Counted from the first letter of the stretch, positions 6,703 to 56,809 are shown. The stretch is 64,000 nt of DNA from Actinomycetota bacterium (GCA_046735375.1 JBKPTD010000005.1:10132-74131); one strand, 5' to 3'. The notes: generated by a model not told the origin, from the sequence alone. Program-made: numbers and translations.

Positions 6703-7095
6703 TCATGGTCTAGGGCAACGGTCACCTTCGATCACGACCTCGACGTCGTCGTCTAGCCCGAGTGGCGGCTTCGATAGATCGGCGACGACCACCGTGACAG
6801 CCGGTGTGGTCGGGTCGGCCGTGCGCACGAGGAGATTCAATCGAGTCGTGTTGTCCTCGACGGACGCCACGCGGGTGCGCTCCCCCGGGCCAATCCGCTT
6901 CCAGTGAAGATCTTTCCCGCTCTCTAGCGAGCCCACGCTTGTCTCGATGGCCTGCTTACATCGGTTAGCCACACTGACGCTGAGTGTCTTTTGACAGGCG
7001 GTCATGAAGGCAAGAACGGCCGTTATAGCGGCAACGAGCGCAACGGCTTGCCTCGAGGTGGATCTCGGCAGTTCCATGGGCACCGCTGTCATCAT
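6703..7095 (-). CDS. Small secreted protein or lipoprotein (hypothetical)
   Basis: N-terminal signal peptide (RSTSRQAVALVAAITAVLAFMTAC) with a GGGAG Shine-Dalgarno. The ORF's upstream extension to 7374 looks spurious. Confidence 0.4.
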   Translation of the reverse strand: MMTAVPMELPRSTSRQAVALVAAITAVLAFMTACQKTLSVSVANRCKQAIETSVGSLESGKDLHWKRIGPGERTRVASVEDNTTRLNLLVRTADPTTPAVTVVVADLSKPPLGLDDDVEVVIEGDRCPRP

Positions 7096-8267: not shown

Positions 8268-9335
8268 ATGGTCGTCGTGATGGCGCCTGAGGCGTCAGAC
8301 AGCCAAATCAATGCCGTCGTCGACCGGGTCGCCGCGGCGGGCGGCGAGGCCTTCGTCTCCCGCGGAGTCGAGCGGACGATCATCGGATTGGTCGGTGACA
8401 TTGAGCGCTTCCGCGCGCTGAACCTGCGTACATTCGCCGGCGTCGCCGACGTCGTGCGCATCTCGGTCCCGTACAAGCTTGTCGCCAGAGAGCACCATCC
8501 CGACATGACGACGGTCTACGTCGGTGGCGTGCCGATCGGTCCCGACACGCTGACCCTCATCGCCGGGCCGTGCGCGGTAGAGACGCCGGAGCAGACACTC
8601 GACGCGGCGCGCATGGCCAAGGGCGCCGGCGCGGCATTGCTGCGCGGCGGCGCGTTCAAGCCCCGCACCTCGCCGTACGCCTTCCAGGGCCTGGGCGAGG
8701 CCGGCCTGCGCATCCTCTCCGAGGTGCGAGCCGAGACGGGCCTGCCCATCGTCACCGAGGTTGTCGACCCGCACGATGTCGATCTGGTGGCGTCGTACGC
8801 AGACATGCTCCAGGTCGGTACGCGGAACATGCAGAACTTCGCGCTGCTTCAGGCGGTGGGCGAGATCGGTCTGCCTGTGATGATCAAGCGCGGGATGAGC
8901 GCGACGATCGAGGAGTGGCTGATGGCGGCGGAGTACGTCGCCCGCCGCGGCAACCTGGACATCGTGTTGTGCGAGCGCGGGATCAGGACCTTCGAGACAT
9001 CCACCCGCAACACGCTGGACATCAGCGCGGTCCCCATCGCACATGGGCTATCGCACCTTCCGGTCATCGTCGACCCATCGCACAGCGGCGGAAGGCGCGA
9101 TCTGGTGCTGCCACTGGCCAGAGCCGCCATCGCCGCAGGAGCCGATGGAGTGATCGTCGACGTCCATCCACATCCGGAGTCCGCCCTATGCGACGGGCCG
9201 CAGGCGCTCGTCGACGGTGACTTGCGGGCACTGGCGCAGGCGGTCCGGCTGTTCCCGCCGCTGCTCGGCCGCGTGCCGGCGACGCTTCCGGCTGAAGCCC
9301 TATCCGCCAGCGTTGAGGAGCCCATCGGCGTGTGA
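8268..9335 (+). CDS. 3-deoxy-7-phosphoheptulonate (DAHP) synthase, class I-beta, with N-terminal ferredoxin-like regulatory domain
   Basis: KDO8PS/DAHPS I-beta core motifs are present (GPCAVE, KPRTSPY, DPSH). An N-terminal ~70-aa regulatory domain precedes them, and an AAGGAG Shine-Dalgarno sits 7 nt upstream of the ATG at 8268. Confidence 0.75.
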   Translation: MVVVMAPEASDSQINAVVDRVAAAGGEAFVSRGVERTIIGLVGDIERFRALNLRTFAGVADVVRISVPYKLVAREHHPDMTTVYVGGVPIGPDTLTLIAGPCAVETPEQTLDAARMAKGAGAALLRGGAFKPRTSPYAFQGLGEAGLRILSEVRAETGLPIVTEVVDPHDVDLVASYADMLQVGTRNMQNFALLQAVGEIGLPVMIKRGMSATIEEWLMAAEYVARRGNLDIVLCERGIRTFETSTRNTLDISAVPIAHGLSHLPVIVDPSHSGGRRDLVLPLARAAIAAGADGVIVDVHPHPESALCDGPQALVDGDLRALAQAVRLFPPLLGRVPATLPAEALSASVEEPIGV

Positions 9336-9391
9336 ATGATCCAGTTTGGGGTGTTGTGACTGGCATCACCTGGCGAGCAGACGGTCGTGCG

Positions 9392-9412
9392 TTAAGGTTA
9401 GGCGAACCTAAG
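9392..9412 (+). promoter_or_regulatory. IdeR/DtxR iron box (TTAAGGTTAGGCGAACCTAAG)
   Basis: A near-perfect match to the actinobacterial IdeR consensus TTAGGTTAGGCTAACCTAA, about 30 nt upstream of bfd-bfr. Confidence 0.75.
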
Positions 9413-9440
9413 TTTCTGCCTCTGTGGAGTCCGCTCGCCG

Positions 9441-9635
9441 ATGTACGTCTGTGTCTGTCACGCCGTGACCGAGAACGAGGTCAACGCCGAAGTCGCACTC
9501 GGCGCACGCAGCGTCGATGAGATCGGCGAACGGTGTGGTGCGGGAACAGGCTGCGGGATGTGCCAGGAGAAACTGCGCGCCCTGCTGCCGATTCCCGCTG
9601 CCTCTTGTGACATGGTGAGCCTGGGAGATCGCTGA
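9441..9635 (+). CDS. bfd: Bacterioferritin-associated ferredoxin (BFD-like [2Fe-2S] domain)
   Basis: Cysteine pattern CxC...C..C (YVCVCHAVTE...CGAGTGCGMC) lying directly upstream of bfr. Confidence 0.7.
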   Translation: MYVCVCHAVTENEVNAEVALGARSVDEIGERCGAGTGCGMCQEKLRALLPIPAASCDMVSLGDR

Positions 9636-9666
9636 CGCGGATCTCTGACACCTCCGGGGGGCTCAC

Positions 9667-10149
9667 GTGCAAGGTGACGCGGAGATCATCGAGTTCCTGA
9701 ACGAGCAGCTGACGGCTGAGCTGACCGCCATCAACCAGTACTTCCTCCACGCCAAGATGCAGGAGAACTGGGGCTACGTGAAGCTCGCGCGTTATACGAG
9801 AGCGGAATCCATCGACGAGATGCGCCATGCCGAGGCGCTGACCGACCGAATCCTGTTCCTCGACGGGCTGCCGAACTTCCAGCGGCTCTTCCCTCTCAAC
9901 ATCGGGCAGGACCTCACCGAAATGTTCACCGCCGACCTGGGCATCGAGACCGTCGCCGTCGACCGCCTCAGGCGTGGCATCGCCGTGATGCGCGATAAGC
10001 GCGACATCACCTCCTCCAGGCTGTTCGAGTCGATCCTCGAAGACGAGGAACACCACATCGACTACCTCGAGACACAGCTCGCGCTGCTCGAGAAGGTAGG
10101 CGAACAGCTCTACATCGCCGAGCTGGTCGAACAGCCCGACGACGCCTGA
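9667..10149 (+). CDS. bfr: Bacterioferritin
   Basis: 160 aa ferritin-like protein with the bacterioferritin signature (EFLNEQLTAELTAINQYFLHAKM, EMRHAE, EEEHHIDYLETQL). It uses a GTG start. Confidence 0.85.
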   Translation: MQGDAEIIEFLNEQLTAELTAINQYFLHAKMQENWGYVKLARYTRAESIDEMRHAEALTDRILFLDGLPNFQRLFPLNIGQDLTEMFTADLGIETVAVDRLRRGIAVMRDKRDITSSRLFESILEDEEHHIDYLETQLALLEKVGEQLYIAELVEQPDDA

Positions 10150-10194
10150 CTCCCGCGCGCGATCGCAGCACGCTGGTCGATCCGGAGCAAGGTC

Positions 10195-11142
10195 TCAGCC
10201 GACGGATTCCGGACGGGTCGAACCCCGCCGCCGCCAACGAGATGCCCTAACTGGGCGAGACCGGCGCGCCCGAGCGGGTCGCGACTGGGTCACCGCGGCG
10301 ACGACCGCGACAGCGTGCGCGAGCTCCGCACGACCTCGCAGCTCCCAGCCGGATCCCCAGTCGGCGACCGCGATCGCTGCGAGCTCGGCAGCAAGCAGTC
10401 TGCCGTCAGACGGGCGGAGGTGCTGGTCGTTGGCGAGCCCGCGAGCCAGGATCCCGCGCAGGCTCGGTGGCACTGCCGCCATCGGTGGCGGGGCCTGCTC
10501 GTGCTTCATGCCGGTCAGCGCCCCCGAGTCATCGCCGGCATACGGCGGCAGCCCGGCCAGGCATTCGACGAAGACGGCGCTGGCGGCGAACACATCGGAG
10601 GCCGGGGTGGCAGGCCCGCCCGCCCAACGCTCGGGGGCAAGATACGCGGGCGTTCCCATCGAGATCGCCTCGGTGGCCAGCGGCAACGTAATGCCTGCAT
10701 CAGTCAGATGGATCCGCCCGTCGAAGTCGACAAGCACGTTCCCTGGCTTGTGGTCTCTGTGCATGACACCGACGGCGTGGGCGGCGGCGAGTCCGTACAA
10801 AGACGAGCTCAGCACGACAAGGGAAGCCTCGACGCTCGGGGTCCCGGTGGTCTGCAGGATCGCGCGCAGCGAACAACCGCGGATGAACTCCATGACAACG
10901 GCCGACGCGCCGGGAGCGTACCCGAGTAGACGGCAGAGGTTCGGGTCGGAGAGCTCGGCCAGCAACCGCGCCTCGCCCTCATAGCGATCGAGGAAGCCGT
11001 AGCCGGAGACCACGGCGTCCGAGAGGAACTTGACGGCGACCTGCGCTGCCGTCGCGTCATCGGTCGCCAGGACAACCGAGCCGGTTGCACCTGACCCGAG
11101 CGGACGGACCTCGGTGTAGCCCGGCAGTCGACCGCCTGCCAT
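10195..11142 (-). CDS. Atypical Ser/Thr protein kinase (variant catalytic motifs HRDHKPGN and DAG)
   Basis: Kinase fold elements are present (GSGATGSV, VAVKF, HRDHKPGNVLV, TPAYLAPE) with a Arg-rich C-terminal tail. The start is probably at M57 of the ORF. Confidence 0.65.
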   Translation of the reverse strand: MAGGRLPGYTEVRPLGSGATGSVVLATDDATAAQVAVKFLSDAVVSGYGFLDRYEGEARLLAELSDPNLCRLLGYAPGASAVVMEFIRGCSLRAILQTTGTPSVEASLVVLSSSLYGLAAAHAVGVMHRDHKPGNVLVDFDGRIHLTDAGITLPLATEAISMGTPAYLAPERWAGGPATPASDVFAASAVFVECLAGLPPYAGDDSGALTGMKHEQAPPPMAAVPPSLRGILARGLANDQHLRPSDGRLLAAELAAIAVADWGSGWELRGRAELAHAVAVVAAVTQSRPARARRSRPVRASRWRRRGSTRPESVG

Positions 11143-11282
11143 ATGTCGTCCCTCCGCGCCCATCGCCGTCCGCCCGCAGAATAAGTGCGGTGCAAAGGCA
11201 TGCCAATAGGTCATATAGCCAGATCTCGGCGGACACACGTCGACGTCCAAGGCAAGCGCGGCCAGGTATGACGTCGCACGGA

Positions 11283-11783
11283 ATGGCGAGAATGCCTGTT
11301 GTGGGAACACCGGGACTGATCGTTATCGGGCTTGCCATCTTCGCCGGGCTCGTGGGCGTCGTGGTTCCGGTTCTGCCCGGGCTCGTGCTCTCGTGGGGTG
11401 CCGTGCTCGTTTGGGCACTCGCAGAGCGCACCGCAGCCGCGTGGACAGTGTTGACCGTGGCCAGCCTGCTGTTGGTCGCCAGTCAGGTGCTCAAGTATGT
11501 GGTGCCTGGGCGTCGGATGCGTCAGGCCGGCGTGCCGTGGCACACCCTGGCCGCCGGCGGTGTCCTAGGAATCATCGGCTTCGTCCTTGTGCCGGTGGTC
11601 GGCCTGGTCATCGGCTTCGTCCTTGGCGTGTACCTCGCCGAACGCACCCGGCTCCGTACGCACCGCGAGGCGTGGCAGTCGACCGTTCATGCGCTCAAGG
11701 CCGTCGGCATATCGATCTTGATCGAGCTCGCCGCGGGCCTCCTCATTGCCGCCGCATGGCTTGGGGCGGTCATCGCCACCTGA
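11283..11783 (+). CDS. DUF456-family small membrane protein
   Basis: Four predicted TM helices and a Gly-rich pattern typical of DUF456. It is transcribed divergently from the atypical kinase. Confidence 0.55.
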   Translation: MARMPVVGTPGLIVIGLAIFAGLVGVVVPVLPGLVLSWGAVLVWALAERTAAAWTVLTVASLLLVASQVLKYVVPGRRMRQAGVPWHTLAAGGVLGIIGFVLVPVVGLVIGFVLGVYLAERTRLRTHREAWQSTVHALKAVGISILIELAAGLLIAAAWLGAVIAT

Positions 11784-11812
11784 CCAGCTCGCCCCGACCG
11801 CCAGCGATGGGC

Positions 11813-13438
11813 TCAGCCGGGCGTGGCATCCGGGCGGCCGGATCCCACGGGCTGTCGCACGCCCTGAGCGATGAGCAACTCAGCGACCTCCGCACTCGGT
11901 GGCTTGCCCGGTACCCAGGCGTTCGCAAGCGAGGCGCCACAGTCGATGAAGGCCTGGACCGTCGCCACCCAATCGGGATCCGCGGCATGCCCGAGCTTGA
12001 ACCCGCTCCCCACGCTTGCCCATACGAGAGGCGAGGACTGCCATGTCGCGTCGGGCGCCTCGATGTCAGCGCCCTCCTCAATGAGCAGCCGGACGACGTC
12101 GACGCTGCCTGACGCGGCCGCGGCTTGTAGAGGCGTCGCACCGTCCTCGCCGCCACGGGTCTCGAGCGGGAAGCCGAGATCGACCATCAGGCGAACCGCC
12201 TCCAGCCTGCCATGGTCGGCGGCATCGACGAGGGCAGCATGGTCCTCATCGGTGAGCTGTGCGAGCAGGTCGGGATGGCGGCGGAGCAGCTCTTGGGCGG
12301 CCTTACGGTCAGCCCGCGCGCAGGCATCCAAGAAGGTGTCTGTGTCCCCGGCGTCGTCAACAGCACCCTGGGCGACGAGCATCGCGGCCACCTCGGCGCG
12401 GCCGCGGCGGCGGGCTTCCCGGTATGGCGAGCGACCCCCCGCGGGTGCGGCCGCCGGGTCCGCACCACCCTGGAGCAGCGCCTGGATCAGATCCAGGCTG
12501 CAGTCGAACTCGATCGCCGCGTACACCGGTGGAATCGACGGCCGGCCCTCATAGGACGCGCCGAGCGCCCCGGCCGGAAGTGGCTCGCGCGGGTCGATGC
12601 CGGCACCAAGGAGGAGCCGGACGGCCTCTGCATCGTTCACGCTGATGGCGGCCGCAAGCGCGTCCAGACCCTCGGCGCGCGCCCCACGCTCGAGCAGCAG
12701 GCCAAGCGTCTCGTGGTCGCGATGGAATGCGGAGTGGTAGAGAGCAGCTGGCGTATCGGGATCAGCGCCGCGGTCGAGTAGCAGCCGCGCCAAGGCCCGA
12801 TGGTTGGCAAGCCCGGCCGCGGCGTACAGCGCCGAGCAATGGCCGGGCCGCGGCGCCCGGCCGATTGTTGTGTCGGGGCTCGCGCCGGCATCAAGAAGCA
12901 GCCGAGCGACGTCAACGATTCCGGCCGACCGACGCGGCTCGATCTGATGCCAGCGAGAGTTGCACGCGAACAGGAGCGGTGGCCATCCGAGCCTCTTGTC
13001 CGGGAGAACGGCGAGCGATGGGTCCCGTTCCAAGGCCGAGCGGACGTAAGCCGGCTCGCCGAGGACCGCGGCGGTACGAATGTCGTACGTCGCGATCGCG
13101 GGATCGTAGTCGAGCAGCCGCGCCGCCCGACGAAGCGCCGACGTGCCAGGCTCGAAGTGAGCCTGCACGCTGGCCAGCAGAAATGCGCTCACGCGCTGAA
13201 AGGTTGTCTCCGCGCTGGCCTCGACCGCTTCCTTGAGCCTCGGCCAGCTGGGGAATCCGAATTCGCGGGCGAGCGCGAGCTGTGCTAGAGCGAGCGTGAT
13301 CGGAGCGCCGGGCCGCCGGTAGTCCGCCAGTCGAGCGAGTGCCGCCGGGTCGCCCTGACGGGCTGCCTTGGCGAGGTCCTTTGCGCGGCGCCGCAGCTGG
13401 TCGAGGTCGGGTCGCGACGGAAACGACTCAGTCGCCAT
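11813..13438 (-). CDS. Ankyrin-repeat protein (541 aa, >10 ANK repeats)
   Basis: Repeated 33-aa ANK units (e.g. GATPLQAAAASGSVDVVRLLIEEGADIEA, ALYAAAGLANHRALARLLLDRGADPD). Confidence 0.7.
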   Translation of the reverse strand: MATESFPSRPDLDQLRRRAKDLAKAARQGDPAALARLADYRRPGAPITLALAQLALAREFGFPSWPRLKEAVEASAETTFQRVSAFLLASVQAHFEPGTSALRRAARLLDYDPAIATYDIRTAAVLGEPAYVRSALERDPSLAVLPDKRLGWPPLLFACNSRWHQIEPRRSAGIVDVARLLLDAGASPDTTIGRAPRPGHCSALYAAAGLANHRALARLLLDRGADPDTPAALYHSAFHRDHETLGLLLERGARAEGLDALAAAISVNDAEAVRLLLGAGIDPREPLPAGALGASYEGRPSIPPVYAAIEFDCSLDLIQALLQGGADPAAAPAGGRSPYREARRRGRAEVAAMLVAQGAVDDAGDTDTFLDACARADRKAAQELLRRHPDLLAQLTDEDHAALVDAADHGRLEAVRLMVDLGFPLETRGGEDGATPLQAAAASGSVDVVRLLIEEGADIEAPDATWQSSPLVWASVGSGFKLGHAADPDWVATVQAFIDCGASLANAWVPGKPPSAEVAELLIAQGVRQPVGSGRPDATPG

Positions 13439-13600
13439 GTCATCTCCTCACTGTGTCCTCCTGGCCCGCGCTGGAGGCGTGAAGAAGATGACGAGAAACG
13501 ACGCGTACTACGAGGTGGACTCAGTCCTTCCCGCGGACCCCGGGGGTGCCCTCAGAACCATCTCGATGATAGGCGTGGTTCGCCAGCCGGGACGAGCGAC

Positions 13601-14656
13601 TCACGACTTATCGACGAGGATGCGCCGCAAGACACCCGCGGCGTACGCGCAGCCGGCATCGTCGACGTCCAGATGTGTGACCAGGCGGACGGCATCGTCA
13701 ACGGTGGAGACGAGTACGCCCTCAGCGCGAGCCTTGCCGGCCAGCTCCTCGGCACCGATCCCGGTCCCATCCAGGTCGAGTCGGATGATGTTGGTCTCGA
13801 CGGCGACGGGGTCGCACATATCGGGAACAGCCTCAGCGAGCGTCGTGGCGATCCGTCGCGCGCGTGCGTGGTCATCGGCCAGCCGCTCGATGTGATGTTC
13901 CAAGGCGTACAGACCCGCGGCCGCCAGGATGCCCGCCTGGCGCCAGCCGCCGCCGAGGCGGTGCCGCAGCACACGTGCCTCGCTGGCGCGGTCGGCGTCA
14001 CAGACGACCAGCGAGCCGACCGGGGCGCCCAGCCCCTTGGACAAGCACACGGAGAGCGTGTCGGCAAGTTCGCCGAACCGCTCCAGCGACGTGCCGGTCG
14101 CCACATGAGCGTTCCAGATCCGCGCGCCGTCACAATGCAGGAGAACCGAGCGCTCCGCGGTGAGCTGGCGAAGTCGCTCGAGTGTCGCGAGGGGATAAAC
14201 GGCTCCGCTGCCACGGTTGTGCGTGTTCTCGACCGCGACCGCCCGTGTGGCCACAACATGCCAGGTGATCGGCCTGAGCTGGACGAGCACCGCGTCGGGA
14301 TCGAGCAGGCCGCGTATGGAGACAAGCGTTCTGGTCTGGATTCCGGCATGCTGGGCCGCGCCGCCGCCTTCGTACGTGACGATGTGGGCGTCGGCGTCGC
14401 AGAGGACCTCGCTCGCTGGCGGGCAGACCAAGCGCAGCCCGATCTGGTTGCCCATCGTGCCGGTGGGCACGAAGACCGCTGCCTCCCGGCCGAACAAGCC
14501 GGCGACGGTCTCCTCCAGGCGGCGGATCGTCGGGTCCTCGCCGTACACATCGTCGCCAACTTCAGCGGCGGCCATCGCCGCGCGCATCTGTGCGCCGGGT
14601 TTGGTGACCGTGTCCGATCGCAGGTCCACGACGCCTAGCTGGTCACCGTTACCCAT
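13601..14656 (-). CDS. ltaE: Low-specificity L-threonine aldolase (PLP-dependent)
   Basis: Beta-eliminating lyase/threonine aldolase motifs are present (DLRSDTVT, GDDVYGEDPT, VPTGTMGNQ, and K in SVCLSKGLGAPVGS). Confidence 0.8.
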   Translation of the reverse strand: MGNGDQLGVVDLRSDTVTKPGAQMRAAMAAAEVGDDVYGEDPTIRRLEETVAGLFGREAAVFVPTGTMGNQIGLRLVCPPASEVLCDADAHIVTYEGGGAAQHAGIQTRTLVSIRGLLDPDAVLVQLRPITWHVVATRAVAVENTHNRGSGAVYPLATLERLRQLTAERSVLLHCDGARIWNAHVATGTSLERFGELADTLSVCLSKGLGAPVGSLVVCDADRASEARVLRHRLGGGWRQAGILAAAGLYALEHHIERLADDHARARRIATTLAEAVPDMCDPVAVETNIIRLDLDGTGIGAEELAGKARAEGVLVSTVDDAVRLVTHLDVDDAGCAYAAGVLRRILVDKS

Positions 14657-14712: not shown

Positions 14713-16236
<1,524 letters not shown>

Positions 16237-54031: not shown

Positions 54032-55045
54032 CTAGCCGACGCGGCGGGCGGCCACGAACGGCATTGTGTCGATCGCCGTCACCTTGACGACATCACCGGG
54101 GTGCGGGGCATGGATCATAAGCCCCTCCCCGATGTAGATGCCGACGTGACTGATCGGGCTGTAGAAGAAGACCAGGTCGCCAGGTTGCAGGCTTGACCTG
54201 GAGACGGCGACGCCGACCTGAGCTTGCGCGGCCGAGACCCTGGGCAGGGTGACCCCCGCGGCTTGATAGGCACCAAGGGTCAAACCGGAGCAGTCCCACG
54301 AGCTGGGCCCGGTGGCCCCCCACACGTAGGGCTCACCGACCTGGTCTATGGCGAAGCGGACCGCCTTGCCGGCGCGGCCGCTTGGCAGGTTCTCCTTGAT
54401 GCTGTCCGGGACGACCAGCGAACCGGTCGACCGCAAAAAAGCACGCTGTTCGAGCTTGAGCGTCGCGAGCAACCCGTTGGCCCTTCGCATGCTCGCCTCG
54501 ATCGCGTCCCGCTTCTCGGTCATCGCGTTCTGCAGCTGCTCGATCTCACCGATCTGCCGAGTTGCCTGCGAGCGAATGGTCAGCAGATCCTGGCGGGCCA
54601 TCTCGACCCTGCGCAGTGCGTCCGCCTGCTGCGCGGACAGTTGATCGAGTGTTGTCGCCTGCTCGAGGAACTGCTGGGGATCGTCGGACAGGAACAGCTG
54701 GAGGGTCTGGTCGACGCCACCACTGCGGTAGGCCATCGTCGCGAAGATGCCGTTCTCCGTGAGCAGCTTGTCCAGCTGGTTCTGCTGCTCACCGACACGC
54801 TCTTGCGTGACCTTCAGCTCCCGCTCGGCAGCGCGCATTCGGTCCTGGTAGCCGTTGTACTGCTCGGTGGCCACTTCTGCACCGTGGTAGAGCTCACCGA
54901 TCTTCTTCTGGACATCGGTGATGCTCGTCGGATCCGCCTGCCCCGCAGAGGGGACCGTGATCAGAAGTGCCGTCGCGGCGGCTGATAAAACGCCAAGAGT
55001 GCGCGCCGGACGAAAACCACTGTGCGACGCCAACTGGTGTGGCAC
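54032..55045 (-). CDS. NlpC/P60 peptidoglycan endopeptidase with N-terminal coiled-coil (RipA/RipC-like)
   Basis: Signal peptide, ~200-aa coiled coil, and a C-terminal NlpC/P60 domain (Cys in DCSGL, His in SHVGIY). It uses a GTG start. Confidence 0.8.
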   Translation of the reverse strand: MPHQLASHSGFRPARTLGVLSAAATALLITVPSAGQADPTSITDVQKKIGELYHGAEVATEQYNGYQDRMRAAERELKVTQERVGEQQNQLDKLLTENGIFATMAYRSGGVDQTLQLFLSDDPQQFLEQATTLDQLSAQQADALRRVEMARQDLLTIRSQATRQIGEIEQLQNAMTEKRDAIEASMRRANGLLATLKLEQRAFLRSTGSLVVPDSIKENLPSGRAGKAVRFAIDQVGEPYVWGATGPSSWDCSGLTLGAYQAAGVTLPRVSAAQAQVGVAVSRSSLQPGDLVFFYSPISHVGIYIGEGLMIHAPHPGDVVKVTAIDTMPFVAARRVG

Positions 55046-55054
55046 CCCTTCTTC

Positions 55055-55205
55055 CTCCCACCGCCGACCGGGTGAGCTGACGGGTTCGGGCGGGGAAGAT
55101 CGGCCCTACGGTGCGTCGCATCCAGGCGTCACACCGATTCACCCCTGGGATCCACTGGGTCCCCGGCTCCGCTCGCAGCCGGTTGAGAATTCGCCGGCGA
55201 GGTCG
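55055..55205 (-). ncRNA. ydaO (c-di-AMP) riboswitch, copy A
   Basis: The minus strand reads ...CCGGGGACCC...CAGGGGUGAAUCGGUGUGACGCCUGGAUGCGACGCACCGUAGGGCCGAUCUUCCCCGCCCGAACCCGUCAGCUCACCCGG..., matching the conserved ydaO blocks. It sits immediately 5' of a purine-rich Shine-Dalgarno and the NlpC/P60 start. Confidence 0.7.
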
Positions 55206-55497
55206 CAGATTAGGCGGGACGTCCGCCCTCATCCCCGGTGGGATGAGCGTCCGTAGCGGACGTCTGGCGCGAAAACATATCGGTGATCAGGTACGCGGAG
55301 CAAGCACCGGAGCGGTCCGCTTCATGACAGTCCAACGATGCTGCACGCGGCAGACGGGCACGGCAATCTGAGCGAGCGGCGCGGCGGCCAGGATCATCGT
55401 GACAGCCGCAATCCATGGAGCGAGGCGCCGGCCGGGGCTCGGCGGAGGTCCCGGCCGTAACGCCTCACGTATCAAAGATGGCGTCCGAGGCGACGTG

Positions 55498-56520
55498 TCA
55501 CCCGGGCCGAGTGGCGCCCACGAAGGGCATGTAGCTGCCAGAAATGGACGTGATCTTCACGACGTCACCCGGGTGCGGCGCGTGGATCATCTTGCCGCCA
55601 CCGATGTAGATGCCAACATGGCTGATCGGGCTGTAGAAGAAGACCAAGTCGCCAGGCTGCAATTGACCTTGTGACACGTGCGTGCCATAGCCGTACTGCA
55701 GGCTGGACGAGTGAGGCAACGAGACGCCGGCCGCGCGCCAGGCCGCCATCGTGAGGCCTGAGCAGTCGTAAGACCCCGGGCCATCTGCTGCCCATTGATA
55801 GGGCTTGCCGAGCTGGGCGTAGGCGAAGTTGACCGCCAGCTTCGCGCGGCCGCTTGCCGGCACGCTTGAGGTTGGGGTCGTGGTCTGCTGCGTGGTAGGC
55901 GGCGGCTCGCTGGGCGTATTCAATGCCGCTCGCTGCGCCGCCGTGAGGCGGCTGAGCAGGGCATTGGCCCGCTGCAGCTTCTTTCTGACCTCTGCTTCCT
56001 TGGCCTTCAGGTCGTCGCGGACCTTGTCGATCTCGGCCAGTTTCTGGCGTGCGGTCAGCTTCGTCTGCTCGAGCTGCTGCTTGGCAAGCCGCAGCCGACG
56101 CAGCGCGTCAGCTTGCTGGGTGGACAGCTGGTCGAGTGTGGTCGCCTGATCGAGGAACAGTCTCGGATCGTCCGAGGTGAGCAGTTGGATGGTTTCATCG
56201 ACTCCGGCGTTGCGATAGGCCATCGTCAGATAGATGCCGACCTCGTCCTGTAATGCGTCGAGCGAGCGCTGCTGGGCGGCGACGCGATCCTGGATCACGC
56301 GCAACTGCTTCTCGGCCGCTTTGAGGTTCTCTGTCGCCACGTTGACTTGCTCGACGACCGCGTCGACCTCGTGATCGAGCTTGTTGACCTCGTCGCGGAC
56401 TTCGCTGATGGATCGCGGGTCAGCGTAGCTCGCGTCGGGCATGACGACGAATCCGACGGCAGTGGCGGTGCAGAGAGCGACCAGTGTGCGTACATAACGG
56501 CGTGAACCGACAGACGCCAC
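55498..56520 (-). CDS. NlpC/P60 peptidoglycan endopeptidase with N-terminal coiled-coil (paralog)
   Basis: Same architecture as the 54032 gene, with a nearly identical C-terminal catalytic domain. Confidence 0.8.
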   Translation of the reverse strand: MASVGSRRYVRTLVALCTATAVGFVVMPDASYADPRSISEVRDEVNKLDHEVDAVVEQVNVATENLKAAEKQLRVIQDRVAAQQRSLDALQDEVGIYLTMAYRNAGVDETIQLLTSDDPRLFLDQATTLDQLSTQQADALRRLRLAKQQLEQTKLTARQKLAEIDKVRDDLKAKEAEVRKKLQRANALLSRLTAAQRAALNTPSEPPPTTQQTTTPTSSVPASGRAKLAVNFAYAQLGKPYQWAADGPGSYDCSGLTMAAWRAAGVSLPHSSSLQYGYGTHVSQGQLQPGDLVFFYSPISHVGIYIGGGKMIHAPHPGDVVKITSISGSYMPFVGATRPG

Positions 56521-56539
56521 CAGAGCGGCACCCCTCTTC

Positions 56540-56690
56540 CTCTGGCCGCCTACCGGGTGAGCTGACGGGTTCGGGCTGGGGAAGACAAGCCCTACAACGC
56601 GCCAGGGCGCGTTGATTCACCCCAGGGAAGATTGGTTCCCCGGCTCCCTCGGAGCCCATTGGTGCCATCTGGGCCCGTCGGGACTCGGCG
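56540..56690 (-). ncRNA. ydaO (c-di-AMP) riboswitch, copy B
   Basis: Minus strand: ...CCGGGGAACCAAUCUUCCCUGGGGUGAAUCAACGCGCCCUGGCGCGUUGUAGGGCUUGUCUUCCCCAGCCCGAACCCGUCAGCUCACCCGGUAGG.... Differences from copy A are confined to one hairpin, which here is a perfect stem (AACGCGCC-CU-GGCGCGUU). Confidence 0.75.
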
Positions 56691-56809
56691 GAGGTCTCCG
56701 CCGACCACTCCGGTTGAGCAGCCGTCGGCGCGGACACCTGGTGCGGAACCATACTCATGATCCGCTCGCGGAGCAATGCGAACCGCCGTTTCTTGTGGAA
56801 AACGCCTGG

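Follow-up and report, generated by a model that had tools for sequence, protein, structure and literature searches.

A short Hanks-type kinase, a DUF456 membrane protein and an ankyrin-repeat protein in a native actinomycete gene neighbourhood

Do three adjacent genes of dissimilar kind, encoding a Hanks-type Ser/Thr kinase, a DUF456 membrane protein and a 541-residue ankyrin-repeat (ANK) protein, form a signalling module, and did they arrive together in the genome that carries them? The genes lie between bfd-bfr and aroG/ltaE at positions 10195–13438 of a 64,000-nucleotide stretch from an Actinomycetota bacterium (GCA_046735375.1 JBKPTD010000005.1:10132-74131; hereafter the window). An earlier note, made from the sequence alone, had correctly placed them there and had read them as an accessory island inserted into a conserved neighbourhood. 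Here, we describe the block as a vertically inherited part of one actinomycete lineage, in which the kinase and DUF456 genes stay together and the ANK gene is an optional neighbour. We hold this descriptive account (the identity of the proteins, their descent, the rejection of an island and the limits of co-occurrence) with high confidence, and we weigh what the kinase–DUF456 pairing might mean.

Inheritance of the block and its invariant pair

In composition the three genes match their surroundings: their GC content is 0.67–0.70 against 0.674 for the window, and GC at third codon positions (GC3) is 0.78–0.79 against 0.77–0.88 in neighbouring genes, so that profiling of GC and codon usage, proposed earlier as a check for horizontal acquisition, returned native values. 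Synonymous divergence (dS) between the window and the related contig L083 is 0.32–0.45 for all eight genes compared, housekeeping flanks included; against the more distant contig L090 it rises to about 1–1.25, with synonymous sites saturated. We detected no tRNA in positions 1–25000 of the window, no flanking direct repeats beyond chance length, and no mobility gene (integrase, transposase) among the called genes. Every related contig has the kinase and DUF456 genes, and all but one have the ANK gene, which is not the patchy presence expected of an island. On these grounds, namely native GC3, dS equal to that of the housekeeping flanks, the lack of tRNA, integrase or repeats, and presence in relatives, we conclude that the block is native and vertically inherited, and the words "island" and "inserted" find no support. 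Nor can the three genes alone be said to break the Rv2175c...aroG neighbourhood, as had been claimed, since the interval from the PknL-like kinase to aroG is also filled by a hypothetical gene, EamA, a type-I DAHP synthase, bfd, bfr and ltaE. The backbone as a whole (thiE-Rv2175c-thiOSG-PknL...bfd/bfr...aroG...pfk) presumably resembles Streptomyces SCO2103–SCO2119.

Comparison across the lineage separates the three genes into a pair and an addition. DUF456 divergently adjoins the kinase in 12/12 clade contigs extending upstream of the kinase (the window with its near-identical counterpart L082, L083, L084, L085, L002, L096, L097, L098, L104, L090, L091 and the P0133 contig), which are not independent and represent roughly three deep sublineages. 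The ANK gene stands beside DUF456 in ten of the eleven contigs reaching far enough; only the P0133 contig departs from this, being ANK-less there and reading aroG2-ltaE-GntR-ABC-ABC2-DUF456<>kinase-bfr-bfd. L090 has both the ANK gene and a GntR/ABC cassette, and bfr-bfd and the PknL-like gene are missing from its locus. All junctions other than kinase/DUF456 show insertions or deletions somewhere in the lineage, and the aroG2-ltaE...DAHP1-EamA backbone is syntenic throughout. The kinase and DUF456 genes are thus the sole invariant pair, and ANK is an optional neighbour.

Outside the lineage the partners part company. Kinase and DUF456 are lacking at 79 of 80 genome loci of the ANK family, the exception (L002) belonging to the same clade; none of seven loci of long kinase homologues carries a DUF456 or ANK partner, and a kinase is absent from all four other DUF456 contexts examined. 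Linkage of the partners in unrelated lineages, the mark of a conserved neighbourhood module, was therefore not found, and the trio co-occurs only within a single narrow lineage of uncultured actinomycetes. The earlier note had let its module stand or fall on whether the triad ever occurs beyond this genome: it does recur in relatives, including L090 with its saturated synonymous sites, but only within this lineage, one sublineage of which lacks ANK beside DUF456.

The arrangement of the genes leaves no room for a common transcript. The strand order kinase(−), DUF456(+), ANK(−) produces one divergent and one convergent junction and no same-strand contiguity of the kind an operon requires, so the block comprises three transcription units. 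DUF456 and ANK converge across 29 bp, as do bfr and the kinase across 45 bp, and ANK comes after aroG2 and ltaE on their shared strand, with its own Shine-Dalgarno sequence (Table 1). The description of ANK as following on the kinase strand is right as to strand, but the opposite-strand DUF456 gene lies between the two; the spacings given earlier as 140 bp (divergent) and 160 bp (upstream of ANK) are close to those we measured (Table 1). Within positions 9300–13700 a scan returned a sole promoter-like match (mean in shuffled sequence 0.3), a sigma-70-like promoter facing the kinase gene, and none in the 162-bp gap upstream of ANK. This promoter block is conserved in all relatives, L090 and L091 included, despite dS of about 1.2. 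An inverted repeat overlapping its −10 hexamer, of which CCGC...GCGG is kept in L090 and L091, is a possible operator.

The three proteins and the descent of the kinase

We placed the start of the kinase at the 56th codon (M56) of its open reading frame (ORF), after the near-identical metagenome-assembled genome (MAG) contig GCA_046724245.1 (locus L082). The protein scores 106.6 bits against the Pkinase profile PF00069 (cut-off 31.7), and its AlphaFold2 (AF2) model, with a mean predicted local distance difference test (pLDDT) of 86.7, shows a canonical bilobal kinase fold over residues 9–262 whose nearest solved structures are Mycobacterium tuberculosis PknA (E=1.6e-36) and PknE. In addition to the motifs in Table 1 it has a GSGATGSV loop, an alpha-C Glu (GEARLLAEL) and LAPE. 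By profile, predicted fold and catalytic residues we assign it to the Hanks-type Ser/Thr kinases, its activity being a prediction.

The catalytic Asp (D130), the HRDHKPGN and DAG motifs and the Arg-rich tail listed in the earlier note are all present, although the two motifs are not unusual in every respect. Among the 120 nearest kinase homologues, 114 of which could be scored, KPGN is the commonest loop form (74/114), and short relatives of the window kinase, hereafter the short clade, read HRD[HY]KPGN. DFG occurs in 97/114 and DLG in 3/114, none of them of the short clade, while all 14 short-clade proteins carry DAG (11) or DVG (3), forms found in 0/106 of the others. The unusual features are thus limited to the H that follows HRD and to the DAG. 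In DAG the Phe of DFG, the regulatory-spine residue RS2, is replaced by Ala; following the regulatory-spine concept of Kornev and Taylor, this loss probably lowers kinase activity or makes it partner-dependent.

The window kinase shares its fold and motifs with actinobacterial Hanks receptor kinases (M. tuberculosis PknA, PknE and PknB, and ~530-aa proteins of Micromonospora, Longispora and Trebonia) but differs from them in being 315 aa long, in lacking a transmembrane helix and an extracellular or PASTA domain, in carrying DAG/DVG instead of DFG, and in its conserved polybasic C-terminal tail. A hydrophobicity scan of the protein detected no transmembrane segment after the kinase domain, and the protein falls below every NCBIfam equivalog cut-off (for PknB_PASTA_kin, NF033483, 145.5 against 450, with only the kinase domain aligned). 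It thus has none of the marks of a PASTA/PknB-type receptor kinase, whether equivalog score, transmembrane helix or extracellular PASTA repeats.

The short clade (314–339 aa, 59–100% identity) is known from metagenomes and MAGs only. Its next relatives, at 42–50% identity, are proteins of about 450–560 aa from Longispora, Micromonospora, Trebonia and others, which carry HRDYKPEN and DFG and in which a post-kinase helix is followed by a transmembrane helix and an outer domain. Alignment reveals that the post-kinase block YGPxWExRGRxxLA is common to the short kinase and these long homologues, and that the short-clade proteins end exactly at the basic stretch preceding the long homologues' transmembrane helix. 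Because the helix is shared and the C-terminus falls at this pre-transmembrane stretch, the simplest reading is that the short kinase descends from ~530-aa single-pass receptor kinases by loss of the transmembrane and outer domains. The sequence of the resulting tail (11 R+K against 1 D+E in 30 aa) is strongly conserved inside the short clade.

The kinase is also the fastest-evolving gene of the neighbourhood. Amino-acid identity to the window, in L083 and L090 respectively, is 97% and 86% for DAHP1, 96% and 84% for aroG2, 92% and 80% for ltaE, 91% and 69% for DUF456, 85% and 72% for ANK, and 85% and 49% for the kinase. The ratio of nonsynonymous to synonymous divergence (dN/dS) is 0.19–0.26 for the kinase, 0.16–0.20 for ANK, 0.10–0.17 for DUF456 and 0.04–0.08 for the two DAHP synthases, and all three genes of the block are thus under purifying selection, the kinase being the least constrained. 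In the sister lineage the orthologue (P0137/P0362; L090 8838–9854) reads HRAYKPSN, having lost the catalytic Asp and kept DFG, the reverse of the loss in the window clade, where HRD is kept beside DAG/DVG. Judged by these motifs, the catalytic apparatus is eroding independently, and in different ways, in two sublineages. The sister HRA, the loss of the DFG Phe across the window clade and the highest dN/dS of the neighbourhood liken the kinase to degraded-motif kinases and pseudokinases; the window protein nevertheless keeps Lys38, the alpha-C Glu, Asp130, Asn135 and Asp148. A pseudokinase would lack at least one of three residues, the Lys of VAIK and the Asp of HRD and of DFG, and with all three in place this protein is not one by motif.

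The DUF456 protein matches PF04306 with 124.4 bits (cut-off 29.4) over profile positions 1–138 of 139. It is very hydrophobic and basic (isoelectric point, pI, 11.3), and hydrophobic segments at residues 1–45, 48–72, 81–118 and 132–163 predict about four or five membrane segments, in keeping with the four-TM protein proposed before. The family comprises more than 4800 homologues, of which those from Carbonactinospora, Streptosporangiales and other actinomycetes are 65–73% identical over the full length. "Divergent" is consequently an apt word for the transcription of this gene and not for its sequence, which marks the product as a conventional and well-conserved membrane protein of the YqgC family. 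An exact 18-nt direct repeat within the gene (11572–11589 and 11608–11625, 36 nt apart) duplicates an IGFVL motif in one membrane segment.

Bacillus subtilis YqgC (DUF456, COG2839) resembles the window protein in Pfam family, full-profile match, length (160–163 aa) and multi-pass topology; its gene is co-transcribed with sodA (PMC11332163), whereas the neighbour of the window gene is a divergently transcribed kinase. Deletion of the yqgC-sodA operon causes manganese hypersensitivity, deletion of yqgC only has little phenotype, and the authors describe the function of YqgC as unknown (PMC11332163). Our literature search for experimental work on DUF456 yielded nothing beyond this study. In three differing arrangements, DUF456 also lies beside an ABC ATPase and an ABC-2 permease with a small PadR or GntR regulator (L108 4540–7483, the P0133 contig and L090 12284–14540), and in L108, with a gap of ~10 bp, the arrangement looks co-operonic. 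This adjacency may be coincidental, since ABC-2 exporters are common in actinomycetes.

The 541-aa product is, as stated before, an ankyrin-repeat protein. It matches Ank_2 (95.3 bits against a cut-off of 27.3), Ank (74.3 against 21.1) and Ank_4, although the region recognised by Pfam is limited to about residues 368–475 and most repeats are degenerate. Its AF2 model (pLDDT 93.5; predicted template modelling score, pTM, 0.87) is one continuous all-helical solenoid. A Foldseek search of the PDB returned ankyrin-R/B, designed ankyrin repeat proteins (DARPins) and DARPin fusions, and tankyrase ankyrin repeat clusters (ARCs), at E values of 1e-10 to 1e-11; these are generic ankyrin solenoids and supply no functional clue. 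The protein is acidic (pI 5.3), strongly so in its C-terminal half, and has no hydrophobic segment, and we assign it as a predicted cytoplasmic ankyrin-repeat solenoid. It shares its continuous solenoid fold with the ankyrin-R/B membrane-binding domain, tankyrase ARCs and DARPins; unlike these it is bacterial and cytoplasmic, belongs to a single-domain family of ~530 aa found mainly in soil Actinomycetota, has mostly degenerate repeats, and has family members that add a SnoaL/NTF2-like domain.

More than 1364 homologues make up this family, the best 120 of them mostly full-length, about 530 aa and 48–91% identical. The 245 relatives in species-representative genomes come mostly from soil Actinomycetota MAGs, the remainder including some Dormibacterota, Chloroflexota, Gemmatimonadota and Verrucomicrobiota. 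One subfamily (L040 505–2508, L055 9656–12037) reaches ~650 aa through a C-terminal SnoaL/NTF2-like domain of ~110 aa, joined in L040 by a low-complexity linker. Clustering of the ORFs within ±6 kb of ANK at 80 loci (L002–L081) revealed no conserved partner: the top two clusters proved to be off-frame readings of the fused SnoaL/NTF2-like extension, and the others are generic ABC, SDR and regulator families, each at no more than 10 loci. A literature search for ankyrin and kinase neighbourhoods in Actinobacteria gave nothing specific.

Explanations for the pairing

The explanation that we tentatively prefer, at somewhat short of an even chance, is a neighbourhood of an uncultured soil actinomycete, specific to its lineage and inherited vertically, in which the kinase is paired with a DUF456 membrane protein and ANK is optional. 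The kinase would have lost its transmembrane helix and ectodomain and retained the juxtamembrane basic segment as its C-terminal tail; through this tail it could act at the membrane, with the DUF456 protein as a surrogate anchor or input. Its weakened spine would render its activity partner-dependent or low, and ANK would be a facultative cytoplasmic scaffold and not an obligate component. Action at the membrane with DUF456 is suggested by the loss of anchor and sensor, the retention of the basic tail, and the position of DUF456 as the sole invariant neighbour. That the two proteins are functionally coupled is nonetheless a guess, to which we lend less belief than to the explanation as a whole.

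Several observations weigh against it. A recognisable promoter is found on the kinase side only, and the two genes are divergent, not co-transcribed. Across four DUF456 contexts and seven contexts of long kinase homologues, there is no independent kinase–DUF456 association or fusion. Synteny extends over the whole backbone, and the sample covers only about three deep sublineages, so that the adjacency could be gene-order inertia. Finally, the fastest local evolution and the HRA of the sister lineage mean that the kinase could equally be heading toward a pseudogene-like relic.

The main rival takes such inertia at face value: the three genes would be functionally unrelated neighbours by descent, their order not yet scrambled in a young and narrow lineage. 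It accounts readily for the synteny of the whole aroG2-ltaE...DAHP1-EamA backbone in the same contigs, for the three separate transcription units, for the absence of these partners from the neighbourhoods of all three families elsewhere, and for the sublineage that lost ANK while keeping kinase and DUF456. What it explains poorly is that the kinase/DUF456 junction has outlasted saturated dS (~1.2) while indels hit every other junction, and that the intergenic promoter block is shared and conserved. We consider this rival unlikely on balance, though the strongest of the alternatives.

A bolder extension of the preferred explanation is a split receptor kinase, in which DUF456 would serve as a separate anchor or sensor in place of the lost transmembrane and sensor domains, the (pseudo)kinase would, through its broken spine (DAG/DVG, or HRA in the sister lineage), be partner-activated or purely scaffolding, and the acidic ANK solenoid would be a facultative adaptor. 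We regard this form as improbable; if true, it would be the first role in signalling for DUF456/YqgC, a membrane family that is widespread and orphan.

Slightly less probable again is the model from which the question arose, an acquired island encoding a three-part signalling or sequestration module whose kinase acts on, or is scaffolded by, ANK. The trio does occur in 10/11 informative contigs of the lineage, divergent L090 included, and strong basic charge in the kinase tail contrasts with strong acidity in the C-terminal half of ANK. No trace of an island, however, shows in base composition, dS, tRNAs, repeats or mobility genes; no transcript can span both ANK and the kinase; and ANK stands alone in 79/80 other genomes, with no conserved partner. 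The tail likewise fails to track ANK, its motif being fully kept in the ANK-less P0133 contig and not kept in L090, which has ANK. For this reason we dropped the tail as a ligand of the ANK groove, an idea raised by its end (...TRPESVG), which loosely resembles the R-x-x-x-x-G peptide motif of tankyrase. Apart from adjacency, nothing supports ANK as a substrate of the kinase. Of the dedicated module there survives an invariant kinase/DUF456 pair, and not the three-part unit, given that ANK is optional, the transcription units are three and no link was found elsewhere.

Equally doubtful is a metal-homeostasis unit, in which kinase and DUF456 would regulate or assist the adjacent bfd-bfr genes. 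The proposal echoes the manganese hypersensitivity of the B. subtilis yqgC-sodA deletion (PMC11332163), and bfr-bfd is the next downstream neighbour of the kinase in the window, L083–L085, L096, L097 and the P0133 contig. It is not beside the kinase in L090, L098 or L099, however; the kinase/DUF456 intergenic region scores at background for an iron box (9/19), and the single yqgC deletion has little phenotype (PMC11332163).

Anti-phage defence by a PD-T4-6-like kinase and an ankyrin protein is very improbable. PADLOC PD-T4-6 models do hit the kinase (169 bits at best), and ANK has weak matches to PDC-M72A and to the ankyrin part of MzaA. On those PD-T4-6 models, however, the window's housekeeping PASTA kinase reaches 442 bits, so that the kinase matches reflect a generic kinase domain with nothing specific to PD-T4-6, and the locus lies, vertically inherited, in a conserved metabolic neighbourhood.

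Surroundings and significance

Table 1. Features of the block and its flanks, in window coordinates.
Feature	Position	Strand	Basis or remark
Short soluble Hanks-type Ser/Thr kinase, 315 aa (predicted)	10195–11142	−	Pfam Pkinase; product annotated in MAG GCA_046724245.1
Kinase ORF, mechanical extent	10195–11310	−	PF00069
VAVK motif with ATP-anchoring Lys (K38)	11029–11040	−	K38 nearly invariant in two homologue alignments
Catalytic loop HRDHKPGN with D130, K132, N135	10738–10761	−	Sequence motif and alignment
DAG replacing DFG; Mg-binding Asp (D148) kept, regulatory-spine Phe lost	10693–10701	−	Sequence motif
Conserved post-kinase helix WELRGRAELAHAVAVVAAVT	10288–10347	−	AF2 helix, residues 266–286
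Disordered polybasic C-terminal tail QSRPARARRSRPVRASRWRRRGSTRPESVG	10198–10287	−	30 aa; AF2 pLDDT <50
Divergent intergenic region kinase/DUF456, 149 bp	11143–11291		Read from sequence
Inverted repeat CCGCA-N7-TGCGG, overlapping −10 hexamer (candidate operator)	11174–11190	−	Read from sequence
Sigma-70-like promoter TTGGCA-17-TATTCT	11178–11206	−	Faces kinase gene
DUF456/YqgC-family multi-pass membrane protein, 163 aa	11292–11783	+	PF04306
ANK protein, 541 aa	11813–13438	−	Ank_2, Ank, Ank_4 matches
Gap from ltaE stop to ANK start, 162 bp	13439–13600	−	GAGGAG Shine-Dalgarno 7 nt before ATG
bfd	9441–9635	+	Context gene, one flank
bfr (bacterioferritin)	9667–10149	+	Context gene, convergent with kinase
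ltaE-like low-specificity threonine aldolase	13601–14656	−	Beta_elim_lyase 302.8 bits; upstream of ANK, same strand
Class II DAHP synthase (aroG type, aroG2)	14713–16161	−	Context gene beyond ltaE

The flanks hold several features of their own. About 30 bp upstream of bfd, TAAGGTTAGGCGAACCTAA (9393–9411) matches 17/19 positions of the IdeR/DtxR iron box, for which we assumed the consensus TTAGGTTAGGCTAACCTAA; with no other site in the 64-kb window above 12/19, it suggests separate iron regulation of bfd-bfr. Between the PknL-like kinase and EamA lies a 100-aa ORF (6703–7005, minus strand), a called gene in the MAG annotation with no Pfam match, and at the equivalent position L083 and L084 carry a 130-aa gene. 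The type I DAHP synthase (8268–9335, plus strand) has an N-terminal ferredoxin-like FXD regulatory domain, and it and the non-homologous enzyme at 14713–16161 (minus strand), less than 7 kb apart, are both kept in relatives. Between aroG2 and pfk lie a 77-aa antitoxin-like ORF and, overlapping it, a 100-aa PemK/MazF-like toxin (PF02452; 16366–16901, plus strand), a pair that is not at the corresponding position in L090 or the P0133 contig. Further along, on the minus strand, two full-length c-di-AMP riboswitches (RF00379, 67 and 74 bits; 55047–55209 and 56532–56697) each stand directly upstream of a gene for a cell-wall hydrolase of the NlpC/P60 type, ~340 aa long (54032–55045 and 55498–56520).

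Each of the three proteins of the block adds a member to a known family, and only the truncated, DAG-bearing, fast-evolving kinase, always found beside DUF456, is mildly unusual. Should the kinase/DUF456 pairing prove functional, it would open a first mechanistic route into the large DUF456/YqgC family and exemplify a bacterial receptor kinase with an outsourced membrane module. If not, the result serves chiefly as a correction, in that there is no island and the DUF456 protein is not divergent in sequence, and the stand-alone ANK family of soil Actinomycetota may be a better target for study than the proposed triad.

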